Shown: positions 26,557-51,288, counted from the first letter of the stretch. The stretch is 64,000 bases of DNA from Candidatus Gottesmanbacteria bacterium (GCA_023245335.1 JAHFKK010000001.1:1098053-1162052); one strand, 5' to 3'. The notes: generated by a model from the sequence alone, not told the origin. Program-made: numbers and translations.

Positions 26557-28220
26557 ACAAAATTATTATCAGTGACCTAGCACCCTGGGTCGTCACCGCG
26601 GCGCTATGTATTGTCATGGGGTATCTCGTCACCTGCATACCGGCCTGTATACGCTCATGGACGAGACCTGGACGTCGCACGGCGCTATTCTTCTTATTGG
26701 TCTCAGTTTCCATAGCGGCGTTTGTACGATTTGCCTGGGTCCCGAATACGCGCCGGATTTATTTTGATGAAGACCGGTATCTCATGTATGCAGTATCATT
26801 TGCCAGAACGGGACAGGAGCTGGGAATACGGCTGGCAACACCGACCAAGGTCTTGCTCGGAGATCCGGACCCGGGAGCGCGCGTCACGGTGCCCACTCTC
26901 CATGCATGGATTATGCGTTTGTTCGGATATAATGACACGCCACTTTTTACCGCCGCCAAAGTAGCCAGCACCATACAGATCCTTCTTCTGTTTGCATTGT
27001 CGTTTCTCTTGTTTGGATCGCCCGTAGGGGCTATAGTCGCCGCCTGCATCTACGCGCTGCTACCGATCACTGCTTATTGGTCTGTAACGACCAATCTCGA
27101 CTCTTACTTCGTGTTTTTCGGCATGCTCGCGGCAATTGCAGCCCTCTGGTATGTGAAACGTCCATCGCTCGCCCGCAGCATATTCCTATGTGCCACGATA
27201 ACGCTATTATTATTTGTACGTATCGAGGGATTGGCATTCATACCGATCCTCGTCATAGCGATCGTCCTGCGCAGAAGGGAAATCCGAGCGCCACTCCTTC
27301 AACGGTCAGATATTTTCGCTATCGCATTTACTGCACTTTTATTAGGAATGCGGCTTTTTATTGCCCTTCCCTTATTTTCACAAACCTGGTGTTGCGCTGA
27401 AGCCACCCCTCTCGAGATATTCCAGATCGGATATGTTGCCCGGAATATCATTCCGAACATCCAAACCTTCGTGATGCAACCGGAATTTCCGGCTATACTC
27501 TCACTTCTTGCGTTCGTCACGCTGTTTCTGCCGTACGAGTGGACCAAAAAACGGCTGCCCTCGCTATCTGGATCGGCCCGCTGGATGCTTGTTTTGTGGA
27601 TTCTTTTTTACTTTGTCATCTACTCCTGTTATTACGCAGGACAATTTTATTCGTTTACGTTTTCGGGCTCCTATGGACGGTTTTTCCTCGTGCTCGTGCC
27701 TCCCATCGTACTTCTTGCCGCCTTCGGCCTGACACGCATAGGGAACGTATTTGTTACGGCAAACAATAAATCCAAAATACGGATGCTCGGTGTGGCGCTT
27801 ATCGTCGGTTTGACGCTCTATCCGACCATAATAAATTATCAAACTATGATCCGAATATCCCCGTGGGACGCGCTTGTTGATATGGGGCCGCGTATTTCCC
27901 GTACGCAGCTTACGCAAAATATCCTGCCGAACATTCCAAGATCCGCTATCCTCATCCATCCGTTAACCGCAGCGCCACTCATGGACGGACGGACCATTGT
28001 TGCCTACGAGGCTTTCCTGTCATCGCCACAGGCGCAATCCTATGTGAAACAAAAACTTAAAGAAGGTGTCCAGGTATATATCCTGCATACGAATACGTGC
28101 GATTCAACCCCGTACAAATGCGCGGGCCTTCGTGGGACGTTCACTTTCGTCCCTACTCCTCTTGGACAAGATACGACACAAACCATTGTCGGAATTGACC
28201 AAGTCAAGCTTGTCCATTAG
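26553..28220 (+). CDS. GT-C fold membrane glycosyltransferase, PMT/ArnT (GT39/GT83)-like
   Basis: 555 aa. Polytopic; YFDEDRYLMYAVSF after TM1 resembles the conserved loop-1 FDE motif of protein O-mannosyltransferases/ArnT. Start overlaps the upstream gene by 4 nt. Confidence 0.5.
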   Translation: MNKIIISDLAPWVVTAALCIVMGYLVTCIPACIRSWTRPGRRTALFFLLVSVSIAAFVRFAWVPNTRRIYFDEDRYLMYAVSFARTGQELGIRLATPTKVLLGDPDPGARVTVPTLHAWIMRLFGYNDTPLFTAAKVASTIQILLLFALSFLLFGSPVGAIVAACIYALLPITAYWSVTTNLDSYFVFFGMLAAIAALWYVKRPSLARSIFLCATITLLLFVRIEGLAFIPILVIAIVLRRREIRAPLLQRSDIFAIAFTALLLGMRLFIALPLFSQTWCCAEATPLEIFQIGYVARNIIPNIQTFVMQPEFPAILSLLAFVTLFLPYEWTKKRLPSLSGSARWMLVLWILFYFVIYSCYYAGQFYSFTFSGSYGRFFLVLVPPIVLLAAFGLTRIGNVFVTANNKSKIRMLGVALIVGLTLYPTIINYQTMIRISPWDALVDMGPRISRTQLTQNILPNIPRSAILIHPLTAAPLMDGRTIVAYEAFLSSPQAQSYVKQKLKEGVQVYILHTNTCDSTPYKCAGLRGTFTFVPTPLGQDTTQTIVGIDQVKLVH

Positions 28221-28226: not shown

Positions 28227-29987
28227 ATGTCATTTGCTCAATATCTCTTCAAACGTATCAATCAAAAATCCGTAGGGATGCTGATCGTCCTTTTGGTCGT
28301 CACGCTTTCGTATGTAAATACGTTTTCCAACGCATTCGTCTGGGATGACTTTGATACCATAGTCAACTGGCAGGCCACCCGGACGTGGGCAAGTATCCCT
28401 ACGATGCTTGCCGGCGCCACGCCACCGGGGCATCCCGGTAATTACCGGCCCGTACGCAATGTACTCTATGTCGTCTCCTATATGCTCTGGGGACAAAATC
28501 CCTGGGGCTATCATCTGCAGGCAATCATACTCGCCGTGCTTATGGCGCTTCTGGTGTATGTCATAACCGAAAAACTGGTTAAACGACCCTTTGCACCGCT
28601 TATCACGGCGCTTCTTTTCGGCGTGCATCCCATGCACGTCGAGGCATTCACCTGGATCACATCCAGTATGGACATGTTCGGCATCGTATTTGGCTTCGGC
28701 GCAGTCGCTGCATTCCTGTCCTGGCGCGACCGGCCAAGCCACTGGGGATGGTATGTCCTGACCTGGGTCCTGACGCTGTTGGCGGCTTTTTCTAACGAAA
28801 TCGCCCTTACCGTGCCCATGCTACTTACGGCCATTATTTTACTCATTCCCCGATACCGCGTCCGCCGGCCTGTTGTCACGATGACGCCTCTCTACATACC
28901 GCTTATCGTCAATGTATTTGTACGGGCAGCCCTTCTTCATATCGGTGCCCGCTACATCTATATAGGCAACAGCTTCTGGAAAACCATGCTCATCATGGGG
29001 AAAGCGCTGGTGCTATATCTGCGGCTTCTGGTATTTCCTGTGGGGCTCACTATCGACCATAGTCTGGGCGGCGGACTGACTTCGTGGGCCGTAGAACTCA
29101 CGAATCCGGGCTCCCGAGGCGAACACGCCGTCACGCTGCTTTCCGTATCGGACCCCATGGTTCTTCTCGCCTTAGCGACCTTACTCACCATCATCATCAT
29201 GTTTTTCGTATACCGGAAACGCAACCCCATTATATCGCTCGGTATCGCCTGGTTTGGGATCGGCATGCTTCCGGTATCGAACCTCATACCGACGGAAGCC
29301 ATGATGACCGAACGGTATGCATTGTTCGCTTCGTTTGGATTTTGTCTCATCGTGGGATACGTTTTGACCAAAACGGCAATTCTTACCAAAATACAGATGC
29401 GCTCGTCGCAATTACTGTGGGTGACGTTCATCCTGATCATCGGAAGCTTCAGCATACTCACCATCATGCGTAATGAGGACTGGGCGAACAATAAGACGCT
29501 TTTTGCATCCGCCGTTGCCCGTAATCCGGACGCCTACGTCTCGCGTCTCCAATTGGCAACCGTATATATAGGAGAAGGAAATATGCAGGCTGCATTGGAT
29601 CAATATCTCATTGTGAGTAAAATTATTCCTCAAGAACCGCAAGTAGATATATATATCGCTACGATGTACTCCGTAATGCAGAAATATCCGGAATCAGTCA
29701 TTTATTTCAACCGTGCACTCAAAAAGGATCCCTGGGACATCGAATCTTACTACCGATTGGGTAATATGATGAAGACACTGAAACGATACGACGAGGCGAT
29801 CGACGTCTACACCACGGGAATCAAATTAGCACCCAATCATATTGCCATGATCAATAACCTCGGAGTCGTCTACAGCATAGAGGGCAAATATGCACAAGCC
29901 CACGAGCTCTTTGAACGCGCCCTCACCATAAATCCGTCCTACGAAAGCGCCCGAGAGAATCTTCTGCATCTTAAAGAACGCAACTAG
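28227..29987 (+). CDS. TMTC-like GT-C membrane glycosyltransferase with C-terminal TPR repeats
   Basis: 586 aa. Loop-1 FVWDDFDTIVNW (DD motif), about 11 TM, then clear TPR repeats (AYVSRLQLATVYIGEGNMQAALDQY ... YRLGNMMKTLKRYDEAIDVYTTGIKLAPNHIAMINNLGVVY). Confidence 0.55.
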   Translation: MSFAQYLFKRINQKSVGMLIVLLVVTLSYVNTFSNAFVWDDFDTIVNWQATRTWASIPTMLAGATPPGHPGNYRPVRNVLYVVSYMLWGQNPWGYHLQAIILAVLMALLVYVITEKLVKRPFAPLITALLFGVHPMHVEAFTWITSSMDMFGIVFGFGAVAAFLSWRDRPSHWGWYVLTWVLTLLAAFSNEIALTVPMLLTAIILLIPRYRVRRPVVTMTPLYIPLIVNVFVRAALLHIGARYIYIGNSFWKTMLIMGKALVLYLRLLVFPVGLTIDHSLGGGLTSWAVELTNPGSRGEHAVTLLSVSDPMVLLALATLLTIIIMFFVYRKRNPIISLGIAWFGIGMLPVSNLIPTEAMMTERYALFASFGFCLIVGYVLTKTAILTKIQMRSSQLLWVTFILIIGSFSILTIMRNEDWANNKTLFASAVARNPDAYVSRLQLATVYIGEGNMQAALDQYLIVSKIIPQEPQVDIYIATMYSVMQKYPESVIYFNRALKKDPWDIESYYRLGNMMKTLKRYDEAIDVYTTGIKLAPNHIAMINNLGVVYSIEGKYAQAHELFERALTINPSYESARENLLHLKERN

Positions 29988-30039
29988 CGCGTAAAGTGTC
30001 TTGTATTCTGTCTCCTCATGCTGCATAATTTCACCCATC

Positions 30040-31332
30040 ATGAAATTCCCCGCTCACCCTATCACGCGTTGCAGAATATGCCACCATACGGGACTCCGGG
30101 AGATCCTCAGCCTGGGTAATCAGACGGTGTCAACATTTGTCGCTCCCGGCGAAACAGCTCCCGTTGCGCCGCTTACTCTCCTTCTGTGCGACCCCTCAAC
30201 CAGCGGCTGTGGACTCGTACAGCTCAAACACACCTCCCCGGCAAACTCGCTCTACCGGCACTACTGGTACAAATCCGGGGTAAACGCATCAATGAAGTCT
30301 GCTCTCCGGGATGTCGCGCAGTCCGCAGTCAAACGGCATCCGCTCCAAACCGGCGAAATTGTTCTGGATATCGGCGCGAACGACGGAACATTGCTCCGGG
30401 AATTCCGACGGAGAGACCTACGGAAAATAGCAGTGGAGCCAGCAATAAATCTTACGGGTGAACTTTCGCGTCACGCCGACACCGTCATCAACGATTTTTA
30501 TACCCACCGGGCATTTATCAAAGCTTCCAAAGGAAAAAAAGCCGCGATCATTACGACTGTAGCTATGTTTTATGACCTGGAAGACCCGAATTCTTTCGTT
30601 TCTGACCTACGTAAATCTATCGCTCGAAACGGACTTTGGGTTAATCAGATGGCTTCGCTATATGACATGGTCAAATACACAATGTTTGATAATGTATGTC
30701 ACGAACACATTGAATATTATTCGCTTGCGGCTCTAGAAAGACTACTTGCACGACACAAATTCATGGTCGTCGATCTAGAAATAAATGATGTCAACGGCGG
30801 CAGCATGCGCGTCTACGCAACGCCGGCGGCGTACGCGCACACCTATGTCACCCCCCAATCGACAATCCGTTTACGTCACTATAGAGCTTTGGAAAAAACA
30901 ATGCGCCTGGAAGACCCGCAAACCTATAGACAGTTCTCCCGCCGCGTGACCCGGTACAAACACCTCCTTCATACATTCATCGCGAAAGCCAAAACAAAAG
31001 GAAAAACCGTATGGGGGTATGGCGCATCTACGAAAGGAAACACGCTCCTGCAGTATTTTCAATTCAATGACCGCATACTCGCCGCTATTGCGGAACGCAA
31101 TCCTCTTAAATGGGGACGTGTTACCGCCGGCACCCGCATCCCCATCGTTTCGGAATCAGCCATGCGCAAAGCCAAACCGACGTATCTTCTCATCCTACCC
31201 TGGCATTTCCGCCCGGAATTTATACGACGGGAACAAGCATATCTACGAGGCGGCGGTACGATGATCTTCCCGCTTCCCCGGCTGTCACTCGTCACTATGA
31301 AACACGGGAAACTTCATACGACGTATCTCTAA
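30040..31332 (+). CDS. SAM-dependent sugar C-methyltransferase family protein (Zn-ribbon + MTase + C-methyltransferase C-terminal domain)
   Basis: N-terminal Cys4 (CRIC...CDPSTSGC), SAM motif I (VLDIGANDGTLL) and a C-terminal YGASTKGNTLLQYF block typical of NDP-hexose C-methyltransferases (TylC3-like). ATG 30040 preferred over track TTG 30001. Confidence 0.65.
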   Translation: MKFPAHPITRCRICHHTGLREILSLGNQTVSTFVAPGETAPVAPLTLLLCDPSTSGCGLVQLKHTSPANSLYRHYWYKSGVNASMKSALRDVAQSAVKRHPLQTGEIVLDIGANDGTLLREFRRRDLRKIAVEPAINLTGELSRHADTVINDFYTHRAFIKASKGKKAAIITTVAMFYDLEDPNSFVSDLRKSIARNGLWVNQMASLYDMVKYTMFDNVCHEHIEYYSLAALERLLARHKFMVVDLEINDVNGGSMRVYATPAAYAHTYVTPQSTIRLRHYRALEKTMRLEDPQTYRQFSRRVTRYKHLLHTFIAKAKTKGKTVWGYGASTKGNTLLQYFQFNDRILAAIAERNPLKWGRVTAGTRIPIVSESAMRKAKPTYLLILPWHFRPEFIRREQAYLRGGGTMIFPLPRLSLVTMKHGKLHTTYL

Positions 31333-31344: not shown

Positions 31345-34300
31345 TTATGGCGTCGGACTCGGGGCTGAAGTCGGCGCCGGGCTTGGTGATATGGTCGGCG
31401 CAGGAGAAAGTGTCGGTGTATCTGTTGGCGCAGGAGTTATCGTATCAGTGATGACGGGAGTGGGCGTCACGGTGGGTTGTATCGAACCCGTCGGTACCGG
31501 TGACACTTGCACGCTACCGCCTAGAGGAATACTTGTCGGAGCTGGGACAGACGGGTTGACGGTCGGAGACGGGGTCGGCGCAACCGTCGACGAACCCGCA
31601 ACCGTGCCCGTCGCCTCCTCCTGACCGGAAGTGAATGTCTTCGCGCTGTCAACGGCAATAGCCGTCCAGGAGAACGTGAGGTCTACCGGTGTATCTTTAT
31701 CCAAAAGAATCATGAATCCCTGGGTCGATTGCCCCGTAACCGCCACGTGGACGTTACTCGTAAATACCGTGTTGACGACCGTCTGATGACATTCATCCAG
31801 CGTCGCATCGGGCGCACAAATACCGTCAGTCATATATTGATGATATTTGTCCGTGGAAAGCGCCGGTATGACGATGGTTGCGTTCACAATCGGCGTCTGG
31901 TCATACGCGGACTGGAACGTAATATCCACAAAGCGCTTTCCCTTTTCGATGACCGCATATCCTGCAGCATCCTGGTTGAATTTCACATTTCCGCGGAAGC
32001 TTACTTTGCCGGAATAAATGACGTCTTTCAAATATTCCACCACATCATGGAACCGTACATGCGCCAGAAATTCTACCTGACCTTTAAAGAGTGCTTGTCC
32101 CAGGGAGACCAGCATCTTATCGACGGTGATCCCCTGTCCGAAGTCAGCCAGTTTATCCAGAATTGATTGCTGTACTTGGGCCGTTTCCGTTGCCTGTCCC
32201 GCGAGAAGTCCTGAGTCTGTCGCGATGGTGAGTTCGCTCAACGCATCCGCGGTATGAGCGATCGTGACTTCGCGCGGTTGTTCCAAAAGTGCCGTATCCT
32301 GTTGGTCCCCGAGATAATAGCCGATATTCACGTTCACGAGGAGTTTCGTTTCATCCGCGGGGGCTGCCGGATCATATGCTTCGGCTGCAGTTCCCAATAT
32401 TTTCCCCGGCTTCGTCGCCTTCATCGCAACCCCGGCAACACCGGAAGATGTGATGGGATCACCGATTTTGATCGCTCCGCCGGTACCGTTTACGCGCGTC
32501 TCTACCCGTCCGCTCAATGCGACGGGCCAGGTCATCGAACTCGATGCGCCGATCGTGAGTCCGGGATCAGCAGAGGCGACGCCCAGGAGCTTACGGTCAT
32601 ACGGGATCGCTGACAGCGTCGCTTCGCCGGTCGTATCGGAAATTGCAAGCACTTGCCCGTCGGGTATATCCGCATCTGTGTTTACATAATAATGTTCTGC
32701 GACATCAGCACCCGCGATGGGATCGGGCCGAAGTGATGCAGCCGGCGTCTCTTGGGAACCTCCCTGCTGTACGAGCGGTGAAGCGCCGTTCTGAATCGGA
32801 TCATCCTGAACGAACGCAAACAAATCTACGTTTGCCGTCCACGGGAAACCGTTTGAAACGGCACCGCCCGCGGCACCTACCTGCGCTTGCCCGACGTTTA
32901 TGGCCGGCCCTAAGTTAAATGTAGGAATGGCATTGGCGTTGGTGGCATTACCACAATAGGTCATGCTGATGCCGTCGGACATATTGTTGTCGACAAAAAA
33001 CCGGATATCATTGGTTGCCCTCGCTTCTATCCTTAGAAGGGCAAACGCGTTAGTTTTGATATTTTGGCCGGCACATTGGACCACCTGGTTATTGGATGCC
33101 GTGCCCATACGGACGTTTCCTGCCCATTGCTGACCCAATCCCGTCGCATTGGCGGAATCACCGTTAAAGAACATAATGGCGCCGGAATTTGGCTGCGTCC
33201 AGGGAATCGTATACTGCCATCCCTGGGAATAATTGTTCGCACCGAAGTACATATTTTTGATGGAGGACATTGCGGTAAATCCGGGTGACGGCATGACTTT
33301 CCAGTACATCACCCATTTATTCGCGATATTGAGTATGGCCGCCGTTGCTGCCCCGGTACCACTACCCATATGTAACCGACACTCGCCGCCTTTGTAACCT
33401 GTATCGGTGAGACTCGTACCATTAGAGCTTGTTTGGGTATCCGGTGAAAGTTCCAAAAGCCCCATACTGCCATTCGTTAAAGCTGATCTTGCCTCGTTTC
33501 CAGTGCAGCCGATAGAACCGGAACTCAAACTTCCGAGTGTGAGCGTCCCGCCTTCATCAAATACCCAGCCATACTGATCACCGAACCTGCCGGTAGCGGT
33601 CTGATCTGCTGTTGCTTGCGCTACGTTTCTATTGAAATTGTCCATATAGAAACTTCCGTCGATGTTGATAAATCCGCCTGATTCCGTCACCCCGTATCCT
33701 TCTCCGGTGAAGTATTCTTTGAGTGACGCGAGTGTCGTGCCTGACGCACTTTGATAACTGAGTGCGCTGCCGTCGGCGAGTTGTATGACGGGTGCGGTAT
33801 TCGTGAATTGGATATCTCTGTCGTAACCTGTGCCAATTTTCAGCGCGACCTCTGTCGCGTTTGCCTGCCCGGTAACATTTCCTATGGATATTGCTTCCAG
33901 TGTTCGGCCCGCAGTATTGTCATTTGAAGTGAGGTTTACACGAAGTCCTGCGTTATCAACGGTAGAACTGCCGCCGTTTGCAAAATCTATCTGTAAACCG
34001 TCTACGCCTGCTGTCGCTGCACCCTGACTGGTACCGGTATTGAGGATATTCATCATATCCACAGTGGGTGCAGTAGAGGTTGCCATCGTAACCTGGAATT
34101 GTGTCCCGGTCGTATCCTGAAAAATGATACTGCCATTGGTTCCTGTCATAAGCACGGTTTGATCACCCGCAGATCCCGTCGTGTAGGCTTGTTGCAACGT
34201 CCCGCCCCCACCGCCGCCTGTTCCCGTAGCCCCGGTGGGACCGATAGGACCGGTAGTTCCCTGAAGTCCCGTCGGGCCGGTTGTACCTGTCGGGCCGGTC

Positions 34301-37300
34301 ACTGCCGCCCCGACGTCTCCCGTGCTTCCTGTTGCGCCGGTCGGGCCGTTGGTCTGACCAGTCGGACCAGTCGGACCAGTCGGACCGTTATTACCGGTTG
34401 TACCGGTTACTCCTGTCGGACCGTTTGCTCCGGCACCGCCATTACCTCCGGTTGCACCGGTTGAACCAGTGGGACCGGCATTACCAGTAACGCCTGTTGA
34501 ACCTGTAGGACCGGCATTACCGGTTGCGCCCGTACTTCCCGTTGGCCCGGAAGAACCTTGTGTTCCGGTAGATCCTGTGGAACCGGTTGGTCCGGATGAA
34601 CCTGCAGTCCCGTTAGCTCCGGTAGAACCCGTCGGCCCCGTAGGACCATTATTTCCTGTTGCTCCGGTCGAGCCAGTTGGTCCAGCATTTCCAGTAGTAC
34701 CGGTTGAGCCAGTGGGACCTGAAGTTCCTTGAGTTCCGGTCGCACCGGTTGAGCCGGTAGGACCACTTGACCCTTGAGCTCCTGTTGCTCCGGTAGAACC
34801 CGTCGGCCCCGTAGGACCATTATTTCCTGTTGCTCCGGTCGAGCCCGTTGATCCCGTTGGTCCGTTATTTCCGGTAGACCCGGTGGAACCAGTGGGACCG
34901 TTTGCGCCGTTTGCCCCAGCTCCGCCAGCGGTACCCGTAGCACCTGTTGAGCCGGTTGGACCGCTCGAACCCTGTGTACCTGTAGCCCCGGTCGACCCGG
35001 TGGAACCAGTGGGACCGTTGTTCCCGGTTACACCAGTTGAACCAGTGGGACCGGCATTGCCAGTTGTTCCTGTTGTCCCTGTCGGACCACCTGCGCCTTG
35101 TGTGCCTGTTGCACCCGTCGAGCCGGTGGGGCCGGAAGATCCTTGTGTCCCGGTCGCACCTGTTGAGCCGGTACTACCGCTCGGACCGTTGTTTCCCGTT
35201 GTTCCAGTTGAACCAGTCGGCCCATTATTTCCAGTAGATCCTGTTGAACCAGTTGGGCCGGAACCGCCACCCGCTCCGGTTGCACCGGTACTGCCTGTCG
35301 GTCCTGACGAACCTTGTATTCCCGTCGCACCAGTAGAACCAGTGCTTCCCGTGGGGCCGTTATTTCCTGTTATACCTGTGGATCCGGTCGGACCCGCGTT
35401 TCCTGTGGCTCCTGAGGAACCGGTCGGGCCGGAAGATCCTTGCGTCCCGGTTGCACCGGTAGAACCTGTGGGACCGGAAGATCCCTGTACACCAGTTGCT
35501 CCGGTAGAGCCTGTTGAACCCGTAGGACCATTGTTTCCTGTGGCACCCGTACTCCCGGTGGGGCCGGCGTTACCAGTGGAACCGGTGCTTCCCGTTGGGC
35601 CGGAAGATCCTTGTGTCCCGGTCGCACCCGTACTCCCGGTCGGACCAACATTTCCAGTTATTCCCGTACTTCCTGTCGGACCAACATTTCCTGTTGACCC
35701 AGTTGATCCAGTCGGTCCGGAACCACCAGCTGCTCCGGTAACACCAGTTGAGCCAGTAGGACCGGAAAATCCTTGCGTACCTGTAGCCCCGGTCGATCCG
35801 GTAGATCCTGTGGGACCGGCATTACCCGTGGATCCTGTTGAACCAGTCGGACCGGCATTACCCGTGGATCCTGTTGAACCAGTCGGACCGTTTGATCCTT
35901 GTGTTCCGGTTGAACCAGTACTACCAGTGGGCCCGGATGAGCCTTGAGTACCTGTTGCACCTGTCGATCCCGTATTACCCGTCGGACCAGCATTTCCTGT
36001 TGCACCCGTTGAACCGGTGGGGCCGTTATTTCCTGTTGACCCCGTACTCCCGGTCGGACCTGAGCTTCCGCCTGCACCTGTCGCACCTGTTGATCCGGTA
36101 GGCCCGGATGAGCCTTGAGTACCTGTTGCTCCGGTTGATCCTGTGCTACCAGTTGGTCCATTGTTTCCCGTTGTACCAGTTGACCCCGTGGGTCCATTGT
36201 TTCCCGTTGCTCCCGTACTTCCGGTTGGACCGGAACTTCCTCCCGTGCCGGTAGATCCTGTTGATCCCGTTGGGCCAGACGAACCTTGAGTTCCTGTTGC
36301 TCCTGTGGAACCGGTGGGGCCACCGTTACCTGTTGTTCCTGTTGATCCAGTCGGACCGTTGGATCCTTGTGTTCCCGTTGAACCGGTTGAGCCAGTCGGA
36401 CCACTTGACCCTTGGGCGCCCGTCGCACCGGTTGAGCCTGTGCTACCAGTTGGCCCGGCGTTTCCTGTGGCCCCTGTTGAACCCGTTGGGCCGGTCGGAC
36501 CATTGTTTCCTGTTGTTCCCGTAGAACCAGTCGGACCTGCATTTCCGGTCGTACCAGTTGATCCGGTGGGACCGCTTGAACCTTGAACTCCTGTCGTTCC
36601 AGTTGAACCCGTTGATCCAGTGGGCCCGTTATTTCCAGTTGAACCCGTACTTCCTGTAGGACCGGCATTACCGGTAGTACCTGTTGAACCCGTGGGACCA
36701 GATCCGCCACCAGCACCTGTCGCACCAGTTGATCCTGTAGGACCGGAAGAACCTTGGGTACCAGTTGCGCCCGTTGATCCCGTAGAACCTGTCGGGCCAT
36801 TTATTCCAGTAGTTCCAGTGGAACCGGTCGGTCCGTTATTGCCTGTTGTTCCTGTTGATCCAGTCGGACCGTTGGATCCTTGTGTTCCCGTTGACCCGGT
36901 ACTACCAGTCGGACCACTTGACCCTTGGGCGCCCGTCGCACCGGTTGAGCCGGTAGAACCTGTCGGGCCTACATTTCCAGTCGCTCCGGTTGACCCCGTG
37001 GGCCCATTATTTCCCGTTGCACCAGTTGATCCGGTGGGACCGGATGAACCTTGTGTTCCGGTAGCTCCTGTGGAACCGGTGGGACCCGATGAACCTTGTG
37101 TTCCTGTTGATCCTGTAGAACCGGTTGTACCGGTGGGACCATTGTTTCCTGTTGGTCCAGTTGAGCCAGTAGGACCGGCATTACCGGTAGAACCTGTGGA
37201 ACCCGTGGGGCCAGATCCGCCACCAGCACCTGTCGCACCCGTTGATCCCGTTGGGCCGGAAGATCCCTGTGTCCCTGTTGCACCCGTTGATCCCGTAGAA

Positions 37301-40300
37301 CCTGTGGGGCCTGCATTTCCTGTTGTCCCCGTAGAACCAGTCGGACCGGCGTTTCCCGTTGATCCCGTACTTCCGGTTGGACCGGAAGAACCTTGAGTTC
37401 CCGTTGACCCAGTACTACCCGTCGGACCACTTGACCCTTGGGCGCCCGTCGCTCCGGTTGATCCTGTAGAACCTGTGGGGCCTGCATTTCCTGTAGCTCC
37501 TGTTGATCCCGTTGGCCCATTATTTCCGGTAGCTCCGGTTGATCCGCTGGGACCATTTACCCCAGCTCCACCGGCTGTTCCGGTAGCTCCGGTTGATCCC
37601 GTTGGGCCAGACGAACCTTGCGTTCCTGTTGCACCCGTTGATCCCGTAGAACCTGTCGGGCCATTGTTTCCTGTTGACCCGGTGGAACCGGTCGGGCCAT
37701 TGTTTCCGGTTGCGCCCGTTACACCTGTTGGGCCACCTGCACCTTGTGTCCCTGTTACACCTGTGGAACCGGTGGGACCGGAAGATCCCTGTGTCCCTGT
37801 TGCACCGGTACTTCCGGTTGTACCGGTGGGACCATTGTTTCCCGTTACACCAGTAGACCCCGTGGGTCCATTGTTTCCTGTAGAACCTGTGGAACCAGTT
37901 GCTCCGTTTGCTCCGGCATTCCCGGCTGTTCCTGTCGCACCAGTTGATCCCGTTGGGCCAGACGAACCTTGCGTTCCTGTTGCACCCGTGGAACCGGTAC
38001 TTCCGGTGGGACCAACGTTTCCTGTTGTTCCAGTTGAACCAGTCGGACCATTGTTTCCAGTTGATCCCGTACTTCCGGTTGGACCGGAAGATCCTTGCGT
38101 CCCTGTTGCTCCTGTGGAACCGGTGGGACCCGATGAACCTTGCGTTCCTGTTGCACCCGTTGATCCCGTAGAACCTGTGGGGCCTGCATTTCCTGTTGTC
38201 CCTGTTGAGCCGGTAGGACCATTGTTGCCGGTTACTCCTGTGCTTCCCGTCGGACCATTGGATCCTTGTGTTCCCGTTGACCCGGTACTACCCGTCGGAC
38301 CACTTGACCCTTGGGCGCCCGTTGCACCTGTGGGACCAGCATTTCCTGTTGTTCCAGTTGAGCCGGTCGGACCATTGTTGCCAGTTGCGCCAGTACTTCC
38401 GGTTGGACCGGAAGATCCTTGCGTCCCTGTTGCTCCTGTGGAACCGGTGGGACCCGATGAACCTTGCGTTCCTGTTGCACCCGTGGAACCGGTTGGACCG
38501 ACGTTACCGGTTATTCCTGTTGATCCTGTCGGACCGTTATTACCTGTCGTTCCTGTAGATCCTGTCGGACCGGAAAAACCTTGAGCTCCTGTTGCTCCAG
38601 TTGATCCCGTTGATCCGGTCGGACCATTGTTTCCTGTTGAACCAGAACTTCCTGTAGGACCGGCATTACCGGTAGTACCTGTTGAACCCGTGGGGCCGGA
38701 TCCACCACCAGCACCTGTCGCGCCAGTTGAACCAGTAGGACCAGAAGATCCTTGGGTACCCGTTGCTCCTGTGGAACCAGTTGTTCCGGTCGGACCAGCG
38801 TTTCCGGTAGCTCCGGTAGAACCGGTCGGACCAGCGTTTCCAGTTGTTCCAGTTGAGCCTGTTGCTCCATTGGCTCCATTTGCGCCGGCAGTCCCGGCAG
38901 TTCCCGTAGCGCCGGTGGAACCGGTGGGACCAGATGAACCTTGAATTCCTGTTGATCCCGTACTTCCTGTCGGACCGTTTGTACCGGTAGTTCCAGTAGA
39001 ACCGGTCGGTCCTGCATTTCCGCTCGGGCCTGTTGCTCCCGTCGGGCCGGCTGCACCGGCTGCACCACCCTGTGATCCGGTCGGTCCTGTTGCCCCAGTA
39101 GGACCACCTTCGCCGGTAACCCCTGTTGATCCAGTACTTCCAGTCGCGCCCGTGGAACCACTCGTCCCTACTCCACCGGTTGCACCGGTGGAACCGGTCG
39201 GACCGCTTACTCCTTGAATACCTGTTGCTCCTGTAGAACCGGTTGGACCGGCATTGCCGGTAGATCCCGTACTACCAGTTGGACCTGAGGAACCTGCAGA
39301 TCCAGTTGCGCCACTTGACCCAGTCGGACCATTATTTCCTGTAGATCCGGTAGAACCGGTCGGACCCGCATTCCCTGTAGGCCCTGTCGATCCGGTTGGT
39401 CCATTCCCACCATTTGCACCTGTTGCACCTGTACTACCAGTTGGACCTGAGGAACCTGCAGATCCAGTTGCGCCACTTGACCCAGTCGGACCGGCGATAC
39501 CTGTTATACCTGTGGCTCCGGTAGGACCACTCGTCCCTATTCCACCGGTTGCACCGGTAGAACCGGTCGGACCGCCGATTCCGGTGGCGCCCGTAACACC
39601 GGTTGATCCTGTAGGTCCAACTATACCTGTCGCTCCTGTTGAACCGGTAGGTCCGTTTGACCCGCCTCCGCCACCCCCGCTACCGGTACCGGTAGCTCCG
39701 GTGGGACCTATGGGACCGAGTTCTCCGGTAGATCCCGCTGTCCCGACACCAGTTGCCCCGGTTGCCCCGTCTACACCAATAGTGCCGTTCGTTCCGTTCG
39801 TCCCATTAGAGCCATTTGCTCCCGCATCTCCTTTCTCTCCCTGGGGGCCACTGACTCCTGTAGCTCCTGTTGCGCCAGTTTCCCCAATACCTCCGAATGT
39901 GCCGCCGGAATAAAGCGTAGCGCTGCCGGTTTGCAATCCTGTGTTGTTCTGCTGTTGAGTCGTATTGAAGTTGTTGACTGTGGTAAATTGCGGGCTAAGT
40001 TGTTGTGTCGCGGTGGGTGAAGAAGTAACTGATGTAGAACCTATCCTAATGATACCTTGTGCATCAAAACGTTGCACGGTCAATCCAATTGTTGGCAAGT
40101 TTGGTGCCAATATCTGAGGTGATGATCCAAAAGAACCCGCATCTGTCGAAACTCCTAATACGCTCGTGTCGTTATTCGATACGACAACCATCTTGAGTGT
40201 TTCACGGCTTATGAGTGTTGAGACGGCATCCAGAGATTGTAAGGTCGGCTGAATAGAAAGCGACAGCATGGCGTTATTGGCACTTCTATCTCCCGTAATG

Positions 40301-40905
40301 CGGCTGTGTTGAATATCAGTTATAGCCGAAAAATTACTAATGAGTTTGTCGCCTGCTACCGTCGCATCTGTATAATGAACCGGAAGTATGGAACCATCCG
40401 GTAATGTTATACCGGCCACGAGATGCTCTAGAATCTTTGCCTGATTTCCTGCCCCTTGTTTTGAGATAAAAAGCGGTATCACACCGTTCGCATCTTCAGA
40501 CACGGTCCCGCTGTCGCCGTTTGCATACTGGAGAGTAATATCACCGATAAACTTGCCATTCTGAAGTAGTGCTTCATGAACAAACGCATACGAATAAGAG
40601 CCATCCGGTAGCTGGACAATAAGGAGAAGCGGTCCGTTCCAATCGCTTTTCATGAGAAGATCACTCGTAAGTTGTGGTATTTCCGGGGTCGTCGGCGGTT
40701 GGGGAGACGTAGTAGTCGTATTTTTCGCTACGTTCAAACCGCGGATGGCCGAATATGTGCCCCACGCCAAAGTTGTCAGAATAGCCCCAACGAGGAAAAT
40801 AAGAAAGTACTGGACAAACCCAGCCTCAGATTGTGCATGACGACTGTTAATATGTGCACTCCATACAGAATGACAAAATCCGCTTGAGGCGGATCTTTGG
40901 TGCAT
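31345..40905 (-). CDS. Giant (~3,190 aa) N-terminally anchored surface protein with ~1,900-residue Thr-rich collagen-like (G-X-Y) repeat region, ~950-aa C-terminal globular region and Pro/Thr/Ser-rich tail
   Basis: Single uninterrupted minus-strand ORF (track 31345..41091; start set at the Met just downstream of the upstream gene stop). N-terminal TM ([21 protein letters not shown]); ~300-aa N domain. Then continuous GXY triplets dominated by [13 protein letters not shown] / GTQGSSG units with no Pro at Y positions. A non-repetitive C-terminal region follows, ending [22 protein letters not shown]...[12 protein letters not shown]. Confidence 0.85.
34200..39900 (-). repeat. Collagen-like coding repeat array (about 5.7 kb of degenerate 9-nt/45-nt/171-nt periodic GGx-CCx-ACx units)
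   Basis: Visible as GGACC/GTTGGACC/CCGGT periodicity on the + strand. Protein-level superunit of about 57 aa ([57 protein letters not shown]). Generates long spurious ORFs in other frames and on the opposite strand. Confidence 0.9.
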
Positions 40906-40928
40906 AGCGGGACGCCATTTTTTGTCTT

Positions 40929-42890
40929 TCACGGCGATCCCCCTCCCACAACCTTTGGACGTACATACAAATAATAAAAAGCACTCGTACCAAGGGTAAG
41001 AACTACAAGTATTATGGCAAAGAGCGAAATGACCGAGGCTGTATTGATCATCACTACCGAACCAATCGGTATGCGCAAACTCAAACTCCAACCTAAATTG
41101 GGCACGATATTATACCCATCTACTCCCATGTGATCATTAAAAACTATGCTTTCGCTGGCATGAGGAGTCGTATCATTCAAATACAAACGCATTGGATCAT
41201 CCTTCGGAAGCTCTTTACCGACCATCGCCATATTGCTACTTATGACGTATTGCCCTTTACGATCAACTATCGTGAACCCTTCGCCTCTCGTTTGATCTGC
41301 TATCTGCTGCACCTCCAAATTAAGTTGATTTATGTCTATAGATCCAGCCAAAACGCCCACAAAATCATTTTTGGTGGAAATAAGCGGCACGGAGACCGTA
41401 ACTACTTGTCGGTGGGAGTTATCAGCAAGGGCCTCAAAAACACCGGATACGTATGGCTTTCTCGTATTCCGGGCAGCGATAAAATAATCACGGAATGATA
41501 AATTGGATTGATCAAACGTCCCATACGGGTACAAGGCGACTCCTTTTCCTTCCGCATCCAGTATGATGATACGGCGAAGATAAGAATGGCTTTCATACAG
41601 CACTTTTGCGTACTTATCGATTGTCGTAAAATCTTTCTTCCCCACGGCAACAACAAGGTCTTGATTTACAGCAGCCGTCGCAAGGACTGCCTGTGCCGTA
41701 TCAAATGCATCCTGCACGAGCCTTTGGGCAATGATCATTTTATTATGCAATTCGACCTGCTTTTGATTCCATAGCGTCTGCTGAAGTTCATACACCGCGA
41801 ATATGGAAGCGAGTATGACGACGCTCACTAAGCCCAAAAAGATATGAAGAATTGTTTTATCACGCCGCGAATCATGCCCACGGATCAACATAGACCATAA
41901 CGGCACAACGAGGCTGAAAAATCCCAAAACGACAAAGTACATAGCCCTGCTCCAATACTCCATGTTGGCGTACCAAAGGGCCGCCACGAAACAAAAACAC
42001 ATAGTTACCCAGGCGCCAATTCGAAACCATACGGAACCCGTCCGATAACCGCGCCAAAAAAGGAACAAATTGGTTCCCGCGACACCGGTGAGCAAGAGAG
42101 CCACTGCATAATTGGGAAGGGAAAATAAGCTGGTGAACATCTGCACATGCCCGACATTGGCGCCCAAAAATAACAGCGTCACTACACCTGTTAAAAGAAG
42201 GTCGAGATACAAAAGATAGGAAATAATACCGTCAACATCAAATATCGCGTTATATAAAACGACAATTCCCATGGTGCCGTATAGGATAGCGCCATCAAAA
42301 TCCTGAACATTTATAAAAGGCATCACGCTGCCAAACGCAAGAAGTGCAAGTAATCCAAAAAATACACTCCGCCACTTCCGCATTCCCTGAAATATGTTAA
42401 TCGTGACAATGCCGGCGCCTATGGCTATGAGGGCAACGCGTGCAGTAATAAGATATGCCGACAACGAGGCGTCACCTGCGGTGTTTGTTAGATTGAACAA
42501 AAACAAACTCGCCCCGGATACGATAGCGCCTAGTCCTACCAACCAATCAAAAATATTTGGTGCGGCTACCAGATTCCAGTCATGCTTTTTAGTCCATCGG
42601 GTAATATGAGAAATTAATGCTGATTGGGATATTTCATTGCCAGCAGACACAGGCGGGGTGCTTGGAGCAACTACGGTTTGGACTTTTCCTGCTGTTTCTA
42701 CCGGCCGCTTTGAGAGGTGTAATATACGAGCAAGTTCTTCTTCCGGGATACGGAATCTCCCCTTCCCCAAACGGACTCCTCTGATGCGCTTTTCTTTGAG
42801 GAACGCATAGATGCTATTGGTAGAATAGCCTAATATATCCGCGACTTCTTTGACAGTATAGTTCTTCGGCATGCTCGGGCAGCTTGTCAT
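40929..42890 (-). CDS. Membrane-bound one-component regulator: N-terminal HTH (excisionase/MerR-like) + polytopic TM region + extracytoplasmic Cache domain + C-terminal TM
   Basis: 653 aa. N-terminus [43 protein letters not shown] (HTH_17-like); about 8 TM helices; a Cache-type sensor block ([58 protein letters not shown]); a final TM. No kinase or other output domain. Confidence 0.6.
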
Positions 42891-42937
42891 ACTCCACCCA
42901 AACTTTGGAGTATTCGGATGCTCTAATTAACAAATTA

Positions 42938-42977
42938 TTACAAGTATTTACCTATCTATTTACAAGTCTTTACCAAT
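42938..42977 (-). promoter_or_regulatory. Tandem motif TTACAAGTATTTACC ... TTTACAAGTCTTTACCAAT upstream of the HTH-Cache gene (shared with 18464..18515)
   Basis: Two copies about 21 bp apart, 50-90 bp upstream of the minus-strand start at 42890. Confidence 0.35.
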
Positions 42978-43053
42978 TCTTATTATTAATTGTGAAACCC
43001 TATAAATACTATGCACTAAGATTTCACGGGTTGTCAAGTCTGCAATTAATCAT

Positions 43054-43145
43054 ATCGTAATCTTATCGTTATGCTGCATATTTACCGCATATACGTGCTA
43101 TATACTTAAGTACCAATAAATTGACGTTTGTGATAAGATTACGAT
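43054..43145. repeat. 14-bp perfect inverted repeat ATCGTAATCTTATC / GATAAGATTACGAT separated by 64 bp, upstream of 43162
   Basis: Read directly in the divergent intergenic region between the regulator gene and the Fic-like gene. Confidence 0.4.
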
Positions 43146-43161
43146 AAGAACTGCTTCACTT

Positions 43162-44103
43162 ATGATTTCTATTTCGTATACCATCACCCCGACTATCACT
43201 GACCATCTGATCGCTATAGACGCACACCGACGAACAATCCTGACAACGCCTCTTTCTCCTCGGAACGAACAACGGCTTCACTGGGATTCGATCATAGGGC
43301 ATATAACCGCTTCTCTCGCCCTCGCAAATACCACCATTCCGAAATCACAGATCGTCACTATACTCACGCACCCTTCCAAACACCCGACGGCCACAGAACA
43401 ATTAGTACTTTCCTATAAACGTGCACTGGACTGGCTGCATGAGGAGTGGTCCGCGAACCCAAAGACGATCACATTTCCGGTGGTCGAGACACTGGCTTCC
43501 ATCGCACTCCCGGCTCATTCTGCCCGCGCGGCTCTCCGAGATGATGAAGAAAATATCCGGCACTTACTGACCTATCTGCAGTCCCAATCAGACCATCCCA
43601 TCCTGGTCGCCGGTCTCGCACATGGTCAAATTGCCTCTTCCTCAAACCGCAATCTATCCAGTGGTCTCATTTGTCGGCTTACCACAGCGCTTATTCTTGC
43701 CAAATACGGGTACGATTGCCGTGGGATGCTTGCTATAGACCCGTTTTGGACCGAAAACCGCGAACGATATGATCGGGCACTCGAAAGCATTAACCGGCTC
43801 GGACAACTCACCGCGTGGCTTGAGTATTTTACGGGTGTCGCACAGGAAGCTTATGACGGTCTTGCCGAGGAAATATCCCATGCGGCCGCTCACCTACCCA
43901 TTTCAACCTGGCTACTCGCACCGAGGGAAGATCAAATCATGCATCGCCTGGATTCCCCGACCAGCCGCATTACCAACCGTGACGTCCAGCGCTCATTCCA
44001 TATCTCCCAGGTAACCGCCAGCCGTGTCCTTACCAGACTCGTTTCCTTGGGACTTTTGTTTGCGCATGGCAAAGGAAGAAGCGTATATTACACGAAAGCC
44101 TAG
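43162..44103 (+). CDS. Fic/DOC-fold-like protein with degenerate active-site motif and C-terminal winged-helix
   Basis: 313 aa. The region AHGQIASSSNRNLSSGLICRLTTALILAKYGYD resembles the Fic core (HPFxDGNGR..R......L...GY) but lacks the canonical motif. C-terminus RVLTRLVSLGLLFAHGKGRSVYY is winged-helix-like. Confidence 0.3.
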   Translation: MISISYTITPTITDHLIAIDAHRRTILTTPLSPRNEQRLHWDSIIGHITASLALANTTIPKSQIVTILTHPSKHPTATEQLVLSYKRALDWLHEEWSANPKTITFPVVETLASIALPAHSARAALRDDEENIRHLLTYLQSQSDHPILVAGLAHGQIASSSNRNLSSGLICRLTTALILAKYGYDCRGMLAIDPFWTENRERYDRALESINRLGQLTAWLEYFTGVAQEAYDGLAEEISHAAAHLPISTWLLAPREDQIMHRLDSPTSRITNRDVQRSFHISQVTASRVLTRLVSLGLLFAHGKGRSVYYTKA

Positions 44104-44124
44104 CGGGGAATCTGAACGGGTACA

Positions 44125-45549
44125 TCAAAAAAGCTTTCGGTATAAATTTATATATTCTTGTACCTGATGGCTCCACGAAAAGTCTTCCTTCATAGCATTT
44201 TTCATCATGGTCGAGAATTTACGAGGTTGTTTTGCATAAACACTTATCGCTTCCTGCATTTTCGTAACCAGCGCTGCAGTCGAATATGGACCAAATACAA
44301 ACCCGGTCAAACCATCTCGTACACTATCAGCTAACCCGCCTGTTTTCCGCACGAGAGGTAGCGTCCCGTAGCGCATCGCGATCATCTGCGTCAATCCGCA
44401 TGGCTCAAATTTACTTGGGACGAGCATAATGTCGCTCCCGGCGTAAATCCGCCGGGCCAGACGCTCATCGAAGGTGTTGACGTACGAAATATTTTCATGC
44501 ATCTCGGAAAGCTTCTGAAACTCCCCTACTAATTTCTTCTGCCCGGTACCCAAAAGTACGATCTGGTACGTTTCCGGCGGCAATGTTTTGACTGCACGCG
44601 CGATGAGATCAAGCCCTTTTTGCCTTGATTCAAAGCGCCCCACGAAGCCAAAAAGCGGCACGTTGACCTGCGGAAGACGTACGGCCGATTGCAACTGCTC
44701 TTTTATCTTCTGTTTGGCAGAAACAACGGTCGCATGGGTATACTGCACCGGTAGTGCCGCATCATCACTGGGACTCCAGAGATTCGTATCTATACCGTTT
44801 AAAATTCCGACAATCTTGTCACCCCTCCGATGAAATACTTCGCGTACGCGCTTGCCATGCATGCCTTTCATGATTTCCTGAGCGTACGTCGGTGATACTG
44901 TGGTCACCATATCGGCATATTCAAACCCTTCGGTAAGCAACCGCACCGCCCTTCCGAGAGGCGTCATGAAGGCATGAAAGAGTGTTTTGGGGAATCCGAG
45001 CTTCAGCGTGATACTGCTCCCCGCCTCCCCCTGATAGAGAAGGTTGTGAACAGTGAGTATAGTCCTGGTCGTTCGGGATTCTATGGTCTCCCGTTCGCGA
45101 TACCCGACTTTACTGGCCTCTCCGAGAAGTAATGGGACGAGAGCCGTATGCCAATCATTACAGTGGACTATGTCATACGGGCCGCCAAGAAGACCTGATG
45201 AATACAGGTATAACTGGGCGACCGCCTTCGCAAAAAACCCAAACCTTTCTACGATATCCGGACCATCATATTCGTGAAGGAGCGGATGCCGAAAAAGGTA
45301 TACCGGCACGTCTGTTCCGGGTAACCTCGTCTCAAAAATAAACATGAGCTCCCGTCTGCGGTCATAATCTATGGCCAGCTGGCCGATGCAACTCACAGAA
45401 TGCCCTTTGATGCTTTGGTAATACGGCATCGCGATTGCCACATGGATCCCGCGCTTCTCAAGGGCTACGGGCAAACTATAACTCACATCCGCAAGTCCCC
45501 CTCGTTTATACAGTCCGGCAACTTCGCTGGTGACAAATAATACCTTCAT
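44125..45549 (-). CDS. glgA: Glycogen/starch synthase-like GT5 glycosyltransferase
   Basis: 474 aa. N-terminus MKVLFVTSEVAGLYKRGGLADVSYSLPVALEKRGIHVAIAMPYY matches the GlgA K-x-G-G-L motif region. Confidence 0.7.
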   Translation of the reverse strand: MKVLFVTSEVAGLYKRGGLADVSYSLPVALEKRGIHVAIAMPYYQSIKGHSVSCIGQLAIDYDRRRELMFIFETRLPGTDVPVYLFRHPLLHEYDGPDIVERFGFFAKAVAQLYLYSSGLLGGPYDIVHCNDWHTALVPLLLGEASKVGYRERETIESRTTRTILTVHNLLYQGEAGSSITLKLGFPKTLFHAFMTPLGRAVRLLTEGFEYADMVTTVSPTYAQEIMKGMHGKRVREVFHRRGDKIVGILNGIDTNLWSPSDDAALPVQYTHATVVSAKQKIKEQLQSAVRLPQVNVPLFGFVGRFESRQKGLDLIARAVKTLPPETYQIVLLGTGQKKLVGEFQKLSEMHENISYVNTFDERLARRIYAGSDIMLVPSKFEPCGLTQMIAMRYGTLPLVRKTGGLADSVRDGLTGFVFGPYSTAALVTKMQEAISVYAKQPRKFSTMMKNAMKEDFSWSHQVQEYINLYRKLF

Positions 45550-45576
45550 ACTTCAATACATTAAATATTTAGAGTA

Positions 45577-47929: not shown

Positions 47930-48027
47930 AGATACATCATACCACGATTATTTCTTCTGACATTCGTGGAATCCGTACAATCATTTGCCAATACCCCCCT
48001 CCTGGCAATATAATCCTCCCTAACCCT

Positions 48028-51286: not shown

Positions 51287-51288
51287 AA

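Follow-up and report, generated by a model that had tools for sequence, protein, structure and literature searches.

A giant gene for a predicted collagen-stalk surface fiber beside a set of glycosylation genes in Candidatus Gottesmanbacteria

What purpose could a giant protein consisting mostly of collagen-like repeats serve in a bacterium of the candidate phyla radiation (CPR)? The question is raised by a 64,000-nucleotide stretch of DNA from Candidatus Gottesmanbacteria bacterium (GCA_023245335.1 JAHFKK010000001.1:1098053-1162052), referred to here as the window, in which positions are counted from the first letter. A single gene on its minus strand, at 31345..40932, encodes a predicted product of 3195 amino acids (aa). 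We conclude that this giant gene is genuine and complete and that, in a large family of giant surface fibers that lacks annotation, it represents a collagen-stalk form of unusual length. Its product is probably an N-terminally anchored, O-glycosylated, homotrimeric adhesin fiber of ~0.54 µm whose chains are registered from the C-terminus.

The gene lies in one minus-strand open reading frame (ORF) at 31345..41091, which encodes 3248 aa when counted from its first TTG and has its stop codon at 31345..31347. Two start codons deserve attention. The first ATG, at 40905, gives a product of 3186 aa and was chosen as the start by gene callers in two independent contigs. The GTG at 40932 shares the bases GTGA with the stop codon of the upstream gene and is preceded, at a distance of 6 nt, by GGGAGGGGG; judged from these signals, it would be at least as good a start as the ATG. 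All residue numbers given here count from this GTG, and the product that begins with it has a mass of 292.5 kDa and a pI of 4.6. No record matched the ATG-start product exactly, and a scan for promoters and terminators gave the same counts as shuffled controls.

An earlier, sequence-only reading of this DNA, which left the strand unstated, had described one ORF with about 630 consecutive Gly-X-Y (G-X-Y) triplets. The ORF and the number are correct, but the triplets are not strictly consecutive. If Gly is counted at every third position, there are 631 triplets in six runs of 18, 6, 68, 523, 5 and 11, with five interruptions of 1-3 residues each between them; together they span 1902 residues (34198..39903, minus strand). 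The 523 triplets (1569 aa) of the longest perfect run are the longest uninterrupted collagen run seen in this comparison. A higher-order repeat of 57 aa (171 bp, or 19 triplets) is superimposed on the triplets. The commonest triplets are GST (158), GPT (132) and GAT (75). Position X is occupied by Ser (33%), Pro (22%), Ala (16%), Thr (11%) and Asn (9.5%), and position Y by Thr in 65% of the triplets and by Ser, Asn, Gln and Ala in ~7-9% each. Pro never occurs at Y in any of the 631 triplets, just as the sequence-only reading had said. Only eight charged residues are present in the ~1900-residue collagen region, and Ser plus Thr make up 39% of the stalk (483 Thr; roughly 740 Ser/Thr). A 300-aa sample of the stalk matches the Pfam Collagen family PF01391 with E=1.1e-45 and 153.6 bits versus a cut-off of 27.2, and so the G-X-Y region exceeds the threshold by which bacterial collagen-like proteins are recognized; the window protein is a member of that group. 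If it is triple-helical throughout, the stalk would be 1902 x 0.286 nm = 544 nm long, in agreement with an earlier estimate of ~0.5 micrometer. Nine further ORFs of 178-380 aa occur in other frames on both strands at 34407..39913; these are by-products of the G-X-Y codon pattern and not genes.

The stalk is flanked by two nonrepetitive ends. Near the N-terminus, a basic stretch of ~36 aa is followed by a single hydrophobic segment (aa 37-63; 40744..40824, minus strand), a predicted signal-anchor or transmembrane (TM) helix, which is the only segment in the whole protein to exceed 1.6 in a Kyte-Doolittle scan. A predicted extracellular orphan domain of ~280 aa (aa 64-343; 39904..40743, minus strand) then leads into the repeats. 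A search of 5.8 billion sequences revealed one homologue of this domain, P0010, a 279-aa fragment with 61% identity that also runs into G-X-Y. The repeats are followed by ~950 aa, which include a Pro/Thr/Ser-rich C-terminal tail of about 78 aa (31348..31581, minus strand) that was recognized from its sequence and composition; similar tails are present in P0001-P0006. The architecture proposed at the outset, namely a TM anchor, an N-domain, a Thr-rich collagen stalk, a nonrepetitive C-terminal head and a Pro/Thr tail, was upheld.

The C-terminal 961 aa have no significant sequence match in Pfam, NCBIfam, PHROGs or the Protein Data Bank (PDB), and what can be said of the folds comes from an AlphaFold monomer model of 877 aa built from 19 sequences. 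This model of the C-module has a mean pLDDT of 60 and three confident blocks; pLDDT reaches 80-88 over C-module aa 300-450. The module begins with a beta-rich stretch (TLQQAYT...; 33784..34197, minus strand) that is conserved in alignments A1 and A3 and has a pLDDT <50 over most of its length. The first confident block (roughly C-module aa 150-478, or aa ~2384-2712 of the protein; 32797..33783, minus strand, with approximate limits) is predicted to be a ConA-like lectin/glucanase beta-sandwich. Foldseek comparisons with PDB gave E values down to 7e-7 and TM(target) scores of 0.5-0.6; the chains that matched at E<=1e-3 number 198, with GH16 laminarinases/glucanases, ERGIC-53/VIP36 and legume lectins at their head. 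The curved beta-sandwich that defines the ConA-like superfamily is thus present in a moderately confident model. A GH16 enzyme is ruled out by the absence of the ExDxxE motif from the whole C-terminal 959 aa, and the block is therefore read as a binding domain. A predicted beta-tulip autochaperone-like domain follows (32311..32712, minus strand), starting at A2741/D2742 (ADVAEHYY). Beyond it lie a linker and a short-strand repeat (31984..32310, minus strand), a low-confidence stretch whose short regular strands may form a trimeric beta-helix, and a predicted H-type-lectin-like knob near the C-terminus (aa ~2984-3095; 31648..31983, minus strand). Foldseek matches of the C-module also include R-pyocin fiber tips and tailspike C-termini. 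The head had been marked for a check for trimeric C1q/TNF-like, tail-fiber chaperone or lectin folds. A ConA-like fold, an autochaperone domain of the phi29 gp12 type and an H-type-lectin-like knob were found in the model, and no fold search found a C1q/TNF-like head.

The suggested tie to the gp12 autochaperone comes from several observations. When a profile of the last 378 residues was compared with PDB sequences, there was one weak match (E=0.11), the C-terminal fragment of phi29 gp12 (3gqh). The alignment begins at residue 1 of that chain, with 'DFAEYF...GEKIIGVISETAGFVLGESS' in gp12 facing 'DLAENY...' in the profile, and with full-length gp12 it begins at D692, which is residue 1 of the crystallized C-terminal fragment. 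The window protein has A2741|D2742-V-A-E-H-Y where gp12 has S691|D692-F-A-E-Y-F, and so the sequence at which the gp12 fragment starts is conserved here too; the predicted model of the window module also has the beta-tulip fold of this fragment. The motif D[LVIF][AS]E.[YF] was found in 141 of the 174 fetched proteins that were searched, in 108 of them with Ala before it, and its median distance from the C-terminus is 498 residues. The C-terminal domain of gp12 consists of beta-tulips that act as an autochaperone for trimer assembly and are cleaved off after folding (bioRxiv 10.1101/216911; PMC3357383). The beta-tulip alone occurs at eight IMG/VR loci, with the same motif and 38-46% identity over short stretches, and the module-bearing proteins in two of these, L020 and L021, match tail-fiber PHROGs. 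At L021 (UViG_3300033073_000160) the viral fiber protein, which has an ADVAEWY beta-tulip, adjoins a 1355-aa protein (2096..6163) that matches many tail-fiber PHROGs, including 'collagen like minor tail'.

Relatives of the C-module turned out to be numerous. The C-terminal 877 aa have relatives at 38-64% identity; the named ones are a 'collagen-like protein, partial [Candidatus Gottesmanbacteria]' and a Levybacteria protein, whose lineage is Patescibacteria, Microgenomates group, and the fiber-bearing bacterium probably belongs there as well. A profile search adds giants of 1700-2570 aa. A HMMER profile run against 1.84 billion cluster representatives matched 26,865 of them at E<=1e-3, and 2,009 reached E<=1e-30. 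Among the 150 best matches, the majority align with the final ~440 positions of the profile, and the aligned part is the C-terminal end of proteins 1000-6800 aa long. A scan of the GTDB species representatives found 14 loci that carry the C-module. Their complete or longest ORFs encode 2067-2958 aa, all without G-X-Y. Features of these giants are an N-terminal signal, a domain that reads 'INFQGKVVNKT...' and long stalks of Thr/Ser/Gly-rich repeats. Ten or more G-X-Y triplets are present in only 11 of 175 fetched proteins; the highest number, 145, comes from a sequence that breaks off where its contig ends. Related giants share the C-module, and few of them have G-X-Y. It is thus the C-terminal module that defines the family, and the stalk on it is interchangeable. 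Most relatives have a non-collagen stalk, and the window protein is the only complete collagen-stalk member among the relatives examined.

Several other features of the relatives were seen along the way. The non-collagen stalks of L005 (2771..11575), L016 (3734..11608) and others contain recurring Cys knobs, 'G(A/E)MYYNSxxxKFRCYxxxxWxDC'. One such knob lies between the collagen region and the C-module of P0002, and the window protein has none. Two proteins that share the C-module, P0011 (aa 2201-2287 of 2365) and P0013, end in Peptidase_M23, a peptidoglycan endopeptidase, which hints that some family members attack the cell wall of a partner. Nine of the GTDB loci (L003, L005-L009, L011, L012 and L016) are titled 'uncultured Gammaproteobacteria/Pseudomonadales bacterium'. 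Despite these titles, L003, L005-L009 and L016 have long (>=650 aa) C-module ORFs, and in L003 and L005-L009 the neighboring genes agree with those at loci that bear the names Candidatus Gottesmanbacteria and Levyibacteriota. The Gammaproteobacteria/Pseudomonadales titles are probably wrong. Relatives are already labelled 'collagen-like protein' in NCBI. The literature searches found nothing relevant linking collagen-like proteins to Patescibacteria or CPR, or giant proteins to Patescibacteria, and no paper describing the C-module family or its gp12-type module.

The genes around the fiber gene bear on both its cellular origin and its modification. We scanned 37 flanking ORFs in the window. 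Some are housekeeping genes (ribosomal protein L1, G6PD, 6PGD, ribulose-phosphate epimerase, MreB, Maf and a carbamoyltransferase), and many others are concerned with sugars: at least five GT4 enzymes, a GT5 glycogen-synthase-like enzyme, WecG/TagA, an NDP-sugar epimerase, a small GT2, a sugar C-methyltransferase and PMT_2. None of the 37 belongs to a phage family. The C-methyltransferase gene (Pfam Methyltransf_13/23/14; 30001..31332, plus strand) is convergent with the fiber gene and is kept beside it, at 53% identity, in the closest relative, L003; an exact look-up of its product found no record. Next to it are genes for three polytopic membrane proteins, all on the plus strand and each with 9-10 predicted TM segments. 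The first is a PMT_2-family (GT-C) glycosyltransferase of 555 aa (26553..28220; nine TM segments; Pfam 28.2 bits versus a cut-off of 26.1), homologues of which adjoin the fiber gene at 34-50% identity in L003-L010. The second is a 586-aa protein (28227..29987; ~10 TM segments) with C-terminal TPR that is weakly related to the PMT_2 gene and has homologues next to the fiber gene in L003 and L005 only. The third, of 671 aa (24541..26556; ~9 TM segments), has no family match in Pfam or NCBIfam. BLASTP comparison of the 14 loci showed that the 671-aa and PMT_2 genes are syntenic in eight of them, where they lie convergently downstream of the fiber gene at 31-50% identity. The small GT2 of 255 aa (Pfam Glycos_transf_2; 22786..23553, minus strand) is polyprenyl-phosphate-sugar-synthase-like and syntenic in L005 and L010; its NCBIfam similarities to AglJ, a dolichyl-phosphate hexose transferase and PpgS are all sub-threshold. 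Homologues of the GT2 and of the epimerase occur in several of the 14 loci. Judged by family assignments, these neighbors would make up a parts list for extracytoplasmic glycosylation via polyprenyl-phosphate sugars. We infer that the fiber is a substrate of the neighboring glycosylation genes because of this adjacency and because of the ~740 Ser/Thr in the stalk.

A gene of this length could in principle be an artefact of assembly, that is, a chimera or a mis-expansion of a shorter collagen-like gene. The number of repeats is known from the assembly only, short-read assemblies of the same organism break within the repeat region, and nearly all of the G-X-Y-bearing database relatives are cut at contig ends. 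We nevertheless regard an artefact as very improbable. The repeat copies have diverged (67-80% DNA identity according to TRF), and exact repeats within the gene are at most 92 bp long, short of 100 bp; therefore, repeat collapse is unlikely, and so, on sequence grounds, is a chimera. The reading frame and the Gly phase are maintained over 5.7 kb, the window lies on a contig of 1,218,111 bp, and both ends of the protein match separate homologues, the N-end P0010, which itself runs into G-X-Y, and the C-end P0001, P0003 and L003. An independent short-read contig of MEGAHIT style (k141_3130178 of ENA ERZ27279977) is 100% identical to window 46239..39547; it covers the 5' 1.36 kb of the gene and ends inside the repeats, ~110 residues in. 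Short reads therefore confirm the 5' part of the gene and break where expected; the organism is represented in ERZ27279977 / SRR14366791. The gene is also native. The G+C content of the region from 34 to 40 kb is 0.59 versus about 0.49, and this excess comes from codon positions 1 and 2; G+C at third positions (GC3) is 0.36 in the repeat, 0.43 and 0.54 in the two unique ends and 0.47-0.60 in neighboring genes, so that the unique ends are within or just below the range of the neighbors. This native GC3 also speaks against a phage or prophage tail fiber, or a very recent capture of one, working in a virion or a tailocin. Such an origin is suggested by the beta-tulip autochaperone, which is best matched by a phage tailspike domain, by the IMG/VR proteins that combine this module and motif with matches to tail-fiber PHROGs, by the R-pyocin and tailspike fold matches, and by the existence of collagen-like tail fibers (PHROG 'collagen like minor tail'). 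However, the surrounding 64 kb have no phage gene, the protein has an N-terminal membrane anchor, and PHROGs gave no match on either its N- or its C-terminal region. There was also no match when the C-module was compared by tblastn with 50,697 phage records and no relative when IMG/VR was scanned with ConA-region patterns, and the gene and its chromosomal neighbors are conserved in eight genomes at 31-50% identity. The giant gene is chromosomal and not a prophage gene, and we give a role in a virion or tailocin very little credence. Of the alternatives that had been put forward, a cellular surface fiber is borne out by flanks that hold ribosomal protein L1, pentose-phosphate enzymes, MreB, many glycosyltransferases and no phage genes; a prophage-derived fiber holds up for the one module that is common to phage tail fibers and not for the locus.

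The label 'BclA-like' raises a different possibility, a BclA-type exosporium or spore-surface nap protein. BclA and other Bcl proteins have a C-terminal C1q/TNF-like jelly-roll trimer head. The resemblance lies in the stalk, which with Thr at 65% of Y positions and 132 GPT triplets is Thr-rich in the BclA/Bcl manner, and GPT/GST/GAT-rich collagen with glycosylation genes nearby is what is found for BclA (PMC8968730). The likeness ends there. The head of the window protein lacks a C1q/TNF-like fold, and in place of an exosporium-targeting sequence its N-terminus consists of the basic stretch and one TM anchor; the two together rule out membership of the BclA-type family. The named relatives (Candidatus Gottesmanbacteria and Levybacteria) are non-sporulating Patescibacteria, and sporulation genes were not seen among the window genes examined. 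The chance that this is a spore-surface protein is negligible. More serious, though still unlikely in our view, is a reading in which the G-X-Y region is a flexible, heavily O-glycosylated, mucin-like spacer or cell coat (glycocalyx or S-layer-associated) that forms a hydrated layer, with the C-module serving for folding or anchoring only. The stalk is almost without charge, has no Pro at Y and is 39% Ser plus Thr; (GPT)10 without glycan is a random coil (PMC11923368); glycosylation genes are conserved beside the fiber gene; and relatives replace collagen with unrelated Thr/Ser/Gly-rich stalks, as if the exact structure of the stalk were interchangeable. What this reading does not explain is the presence of Gly at every third position through 523 triplets without a slip, although the DNA copies are only 67-80% identical; an unbroken Gly phase despite such divergence argues for selection on triple-helix periodicity itself. 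In addition, a trimerizing phage-type module is predicted at the end where collagen folding starts, and two distal lectin-like folds suit binding more than coating.

We therefore return to the anchored, glycosylated adhesin fiber, for which a homotrimeric triple helix is inferred from the G-X-Y periodicity together with the adjacent trimerizing module. Assembly might proceed as follows. The chain would be exported N to C through Sec, with the N-terminal signal-anchor keeping it tethered, and the unfolded stalk would be O-glycosylated outside the membrane on roughly 740 Ser/Thr. The GT2 would supply polyprenyl-phosphate sugars as donors, and GT-C-type enzymes would carry out the transfer. The C-module, the last part to emerge, would trimerize via its beta-tulip domain and so set the register of the chains, after which the collagen triple helix would zip C to N, towards the cell, into a rod of ~0.54 µm in which glycosylated Thr takes the place of hydroxyproline. 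This would accord with the findings that (Gly-Pro-Thr)10 folds only with glycosylated Thr and that collagen folds C to N (PMC11923368). The distal lectin-like domains, ~0.5 µm off the cell, could then bind glycans on a partner cell or surface. In the least certain step, self-cleavage at A2741|D2742, of the kind known from phi29 gp12, may release the chaperone part and would leave the ConA-like domain as the tip.

A number of points weigh against this picture. The trimer and the triple helix are both predicted, from a monomer model and the sequence, and the assignment of the beta-tulip likewise depends on an AlphaFold monomer model made from 19 sequences. With few charged residues and only 22% Pro at X, an unglycosylated stalk might not fold. 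Several results fail to strengthen the link to gp12: the PDB profile match is sub-threshold, Pfam PF11962 Peptidase_G2 gives no match on the window protein at E<=1 and matches one relative only (E=0.0081), Phage_cement_2 on the window region is sub-threshold as well (E=0.0037, 18 bits versus a cut-off of 24), and Foldseek did not list 3gqh at all. Self-cleavage would throw away the conserved lectin-like knob, which would be odd. The N-terminal 344 aa have no significant Pfam, NCBIfam, PHROG or PDB sequence match that would indicate the fold of the N-domain. The synteny with glycosylation genes could reflect general conservation of gene order in one lineage with no functional link. Finally, several of the related GTDB records are titled Gammaproteobacteria or Pseudomonadales, which makes the taxonomic placement indirect.

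If the bacterium has the cell size typical of the ultrasmall members of this radiation, the fiber would be longer than the diameter of the cell; the isolate name of one relative points to a 0.1-µm filter fraction. This leads to a more elaborate proposal, which we put forward tentatively and consider doubtful as a whole: an ultrasmall episymbiont would catch its hosts with a glycosylated collagen tether ~2x its own diameter, a self-cleaving phage-tailspike chaperone would register the 523-triplet helix, stalks would be swapped on a constant lectin-plus-chaperone head to set the reach, and a dedicated extracytoplasmic glycosylation line would serve the fiber, which would amount to a 'tail fiber' encoded by the cell itself.

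The means by which CPR bacteria find their hosts and stay attached to them are still largely open, and this gene is a concrete and complete candidate: the fiber is predicted to reach ~0.54 µm and has two lectin-like domains, and a set of glycosylation genes adjoins its gene. Breaks in the assemblies cut short the collagen-bearing relatives in the databases, whereas the window gene is complete. The C-module has no significant match in Pfam, NCBIfam or PHROGs and yet has tens of thousands of cluster representatives, so that the tie to the phi29 gp12 autochaperone offers a hypothesis to work with for a very large number of giant proteins that lack annotation. For the study of collagen, the protein would be a natural example of a very long, nearly charge-free and hydroxyproline-free G-X-Thr helix with a non-collagen registration domain, which could be used for testing glycosylation-based stabilization and for designing recombinant collagens.

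Some of the other genes in the window display patterns of their own. The gene directly upstream of the fiber gene, with which it shares the GTGA overlap (40929..42890, minus strand), encodes a protein with an HTH_17 domain (aa 11-57), ~9 TM segments, a dCache_1 sensor domain (aa 387-603) and a last TM segment, according to Pfam and a TM scan; no homologue of it adjoins the relatives' fiber genes in the 14 loci. Two distant giants, P0024 and P0025, have a MerR/HTH_17 domain at their own N-terminus (aa 22-72), and a DNA-binding cytoplasmic domain tied to a giant extracellular protein may be a recurring theme. Between the dCache_1 and GT5 genes is an ORF of 313 aa (43162..44103, plus strand), without Pfam or NCBIfam match or predicted TM segment; gene calls in two independent contigs, L018 and L019, include it as well. 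Further upstream is a dense block of glycosyltransferase genes (44125..52527 and 54041..54886) that includes the GT5 glycogen-synthase-like enzyme, at least four GT4 enzymes and WecG/TagA, and an Exo_endo_phos gene lies at 50582..51286. On the other side, a gene for a class-A beta-lactamase-like protein (Beta-lactamase2; 23565..24581, plus strand) has homologues in seven of the eight syntenic loci, two of which, L007 and L009, have it in duplicate. The window also encodes two further likely surface proteins, at 2172..3347 (minus strand) and 56358..57635 (plus strand); one has Big_13/Big_6 Ig-like domains and the other PEGA.

How does this fiber compare with known systems? Collagen-like fibers of phages and prophages, such as the prophage collagen-like protein EPclA of E. 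coli O157, likewise combine a G-X-Y stalk with a phage-fiber C-terminal trimerization or chaperone domain. They are short (tens to a few hundred triplets), phage-encoded, soluble parts of the virion, whereas the window protein is chromosomal and membrane-anchored, has >600 triplets and lectin-like domains and resides in a glycosylation neighborhood. In gp12, the pre-neck appendage (tailspike) of Bacillus phage phi29 with its autochaperone domain D4 (3gqh; MEROPS G2 / PF11962), a C-terminal beta-tulip also follows an elongated homotrimeric shaft, and DFAEYF in gp12 and DVAEHY in the window protein conserve D-x-A-E-x-[YF]. The residue before the Asp is Ala in the window protein and Ser in gp12; the gp12 shaft is a beta-helix on the virion, and that of the window protein is a predicted collagen helix of ~1900 residues anchored in the cell membrane. 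Moreover, the beta-tulip ends the gp12 protein but is followed by ~320 more residues in the window protein (a possible beta-helix, the H-lectin-like knob and the Pro/Thr tail). The non-collagen giants of Microgenomates and Parcubacteria (for example, L005 with 2935 aa, L010 with 2067 aa and P0014 with 2567 aa) have a homologous C-module at 38-48% identity and share neighboring membrane proteins with the window locus. They differ in their Thr/Ser/Gly-rich beta-type repeats, 'MYYNS..KFRCY' Cys knobs and INFQGKVVNKT... N-domain, and some of them end in Peptidase_M23, unlike the window protein.

The Bcl proteins of Bacillus and Clostridioides spores likewise have Thr-rich GPT repeats, an expected O-glycosylation of the stalk, N-terminal attachment and a C-terminal trimerizing head. 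The window protein differs from them in its predicted head (ConA-like, beta-tulip and H-lectin-like), in its TM attachment and in its organism, which is no spore former, and there is no sequence homology beyond G-X-Y. What remains of the description 'BclA-like' is the Thr-rich stalk and not the family. The claim that the stalk is an order of magnitude longer than that of BclA was overstated: collagen regions of Bacillus Bcl proteins reach up to 1,158 residues (PMC8968730), of which the window stalk is 1.6x the length, and there are reports of bacterial collagen polypeptides as long as 6,000 aa (PMC11923368). The length is therefore notable yet not unprecedented. The C-propeptide of animal fibrillar procollagens, a type II intramolecular chaperone, follows the same logic: trimerization of a C-terminal non-collagen domain fixes the register, the helix closes from the C- towards the N-terminus, and the domain is subsequently taken off (PMC3357383; PMC11923368). 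The fold in the window protein is unrelated, hydroxyproline is absent, and any removal would be self-catalyzed rather than carried out by a separate proteinase. By analogy, then, the window protein may work like a phage tail fiber or tailspike with a C-terminal intramolecular chaperone and, at the same time, like procollagen with its C-propeptide.

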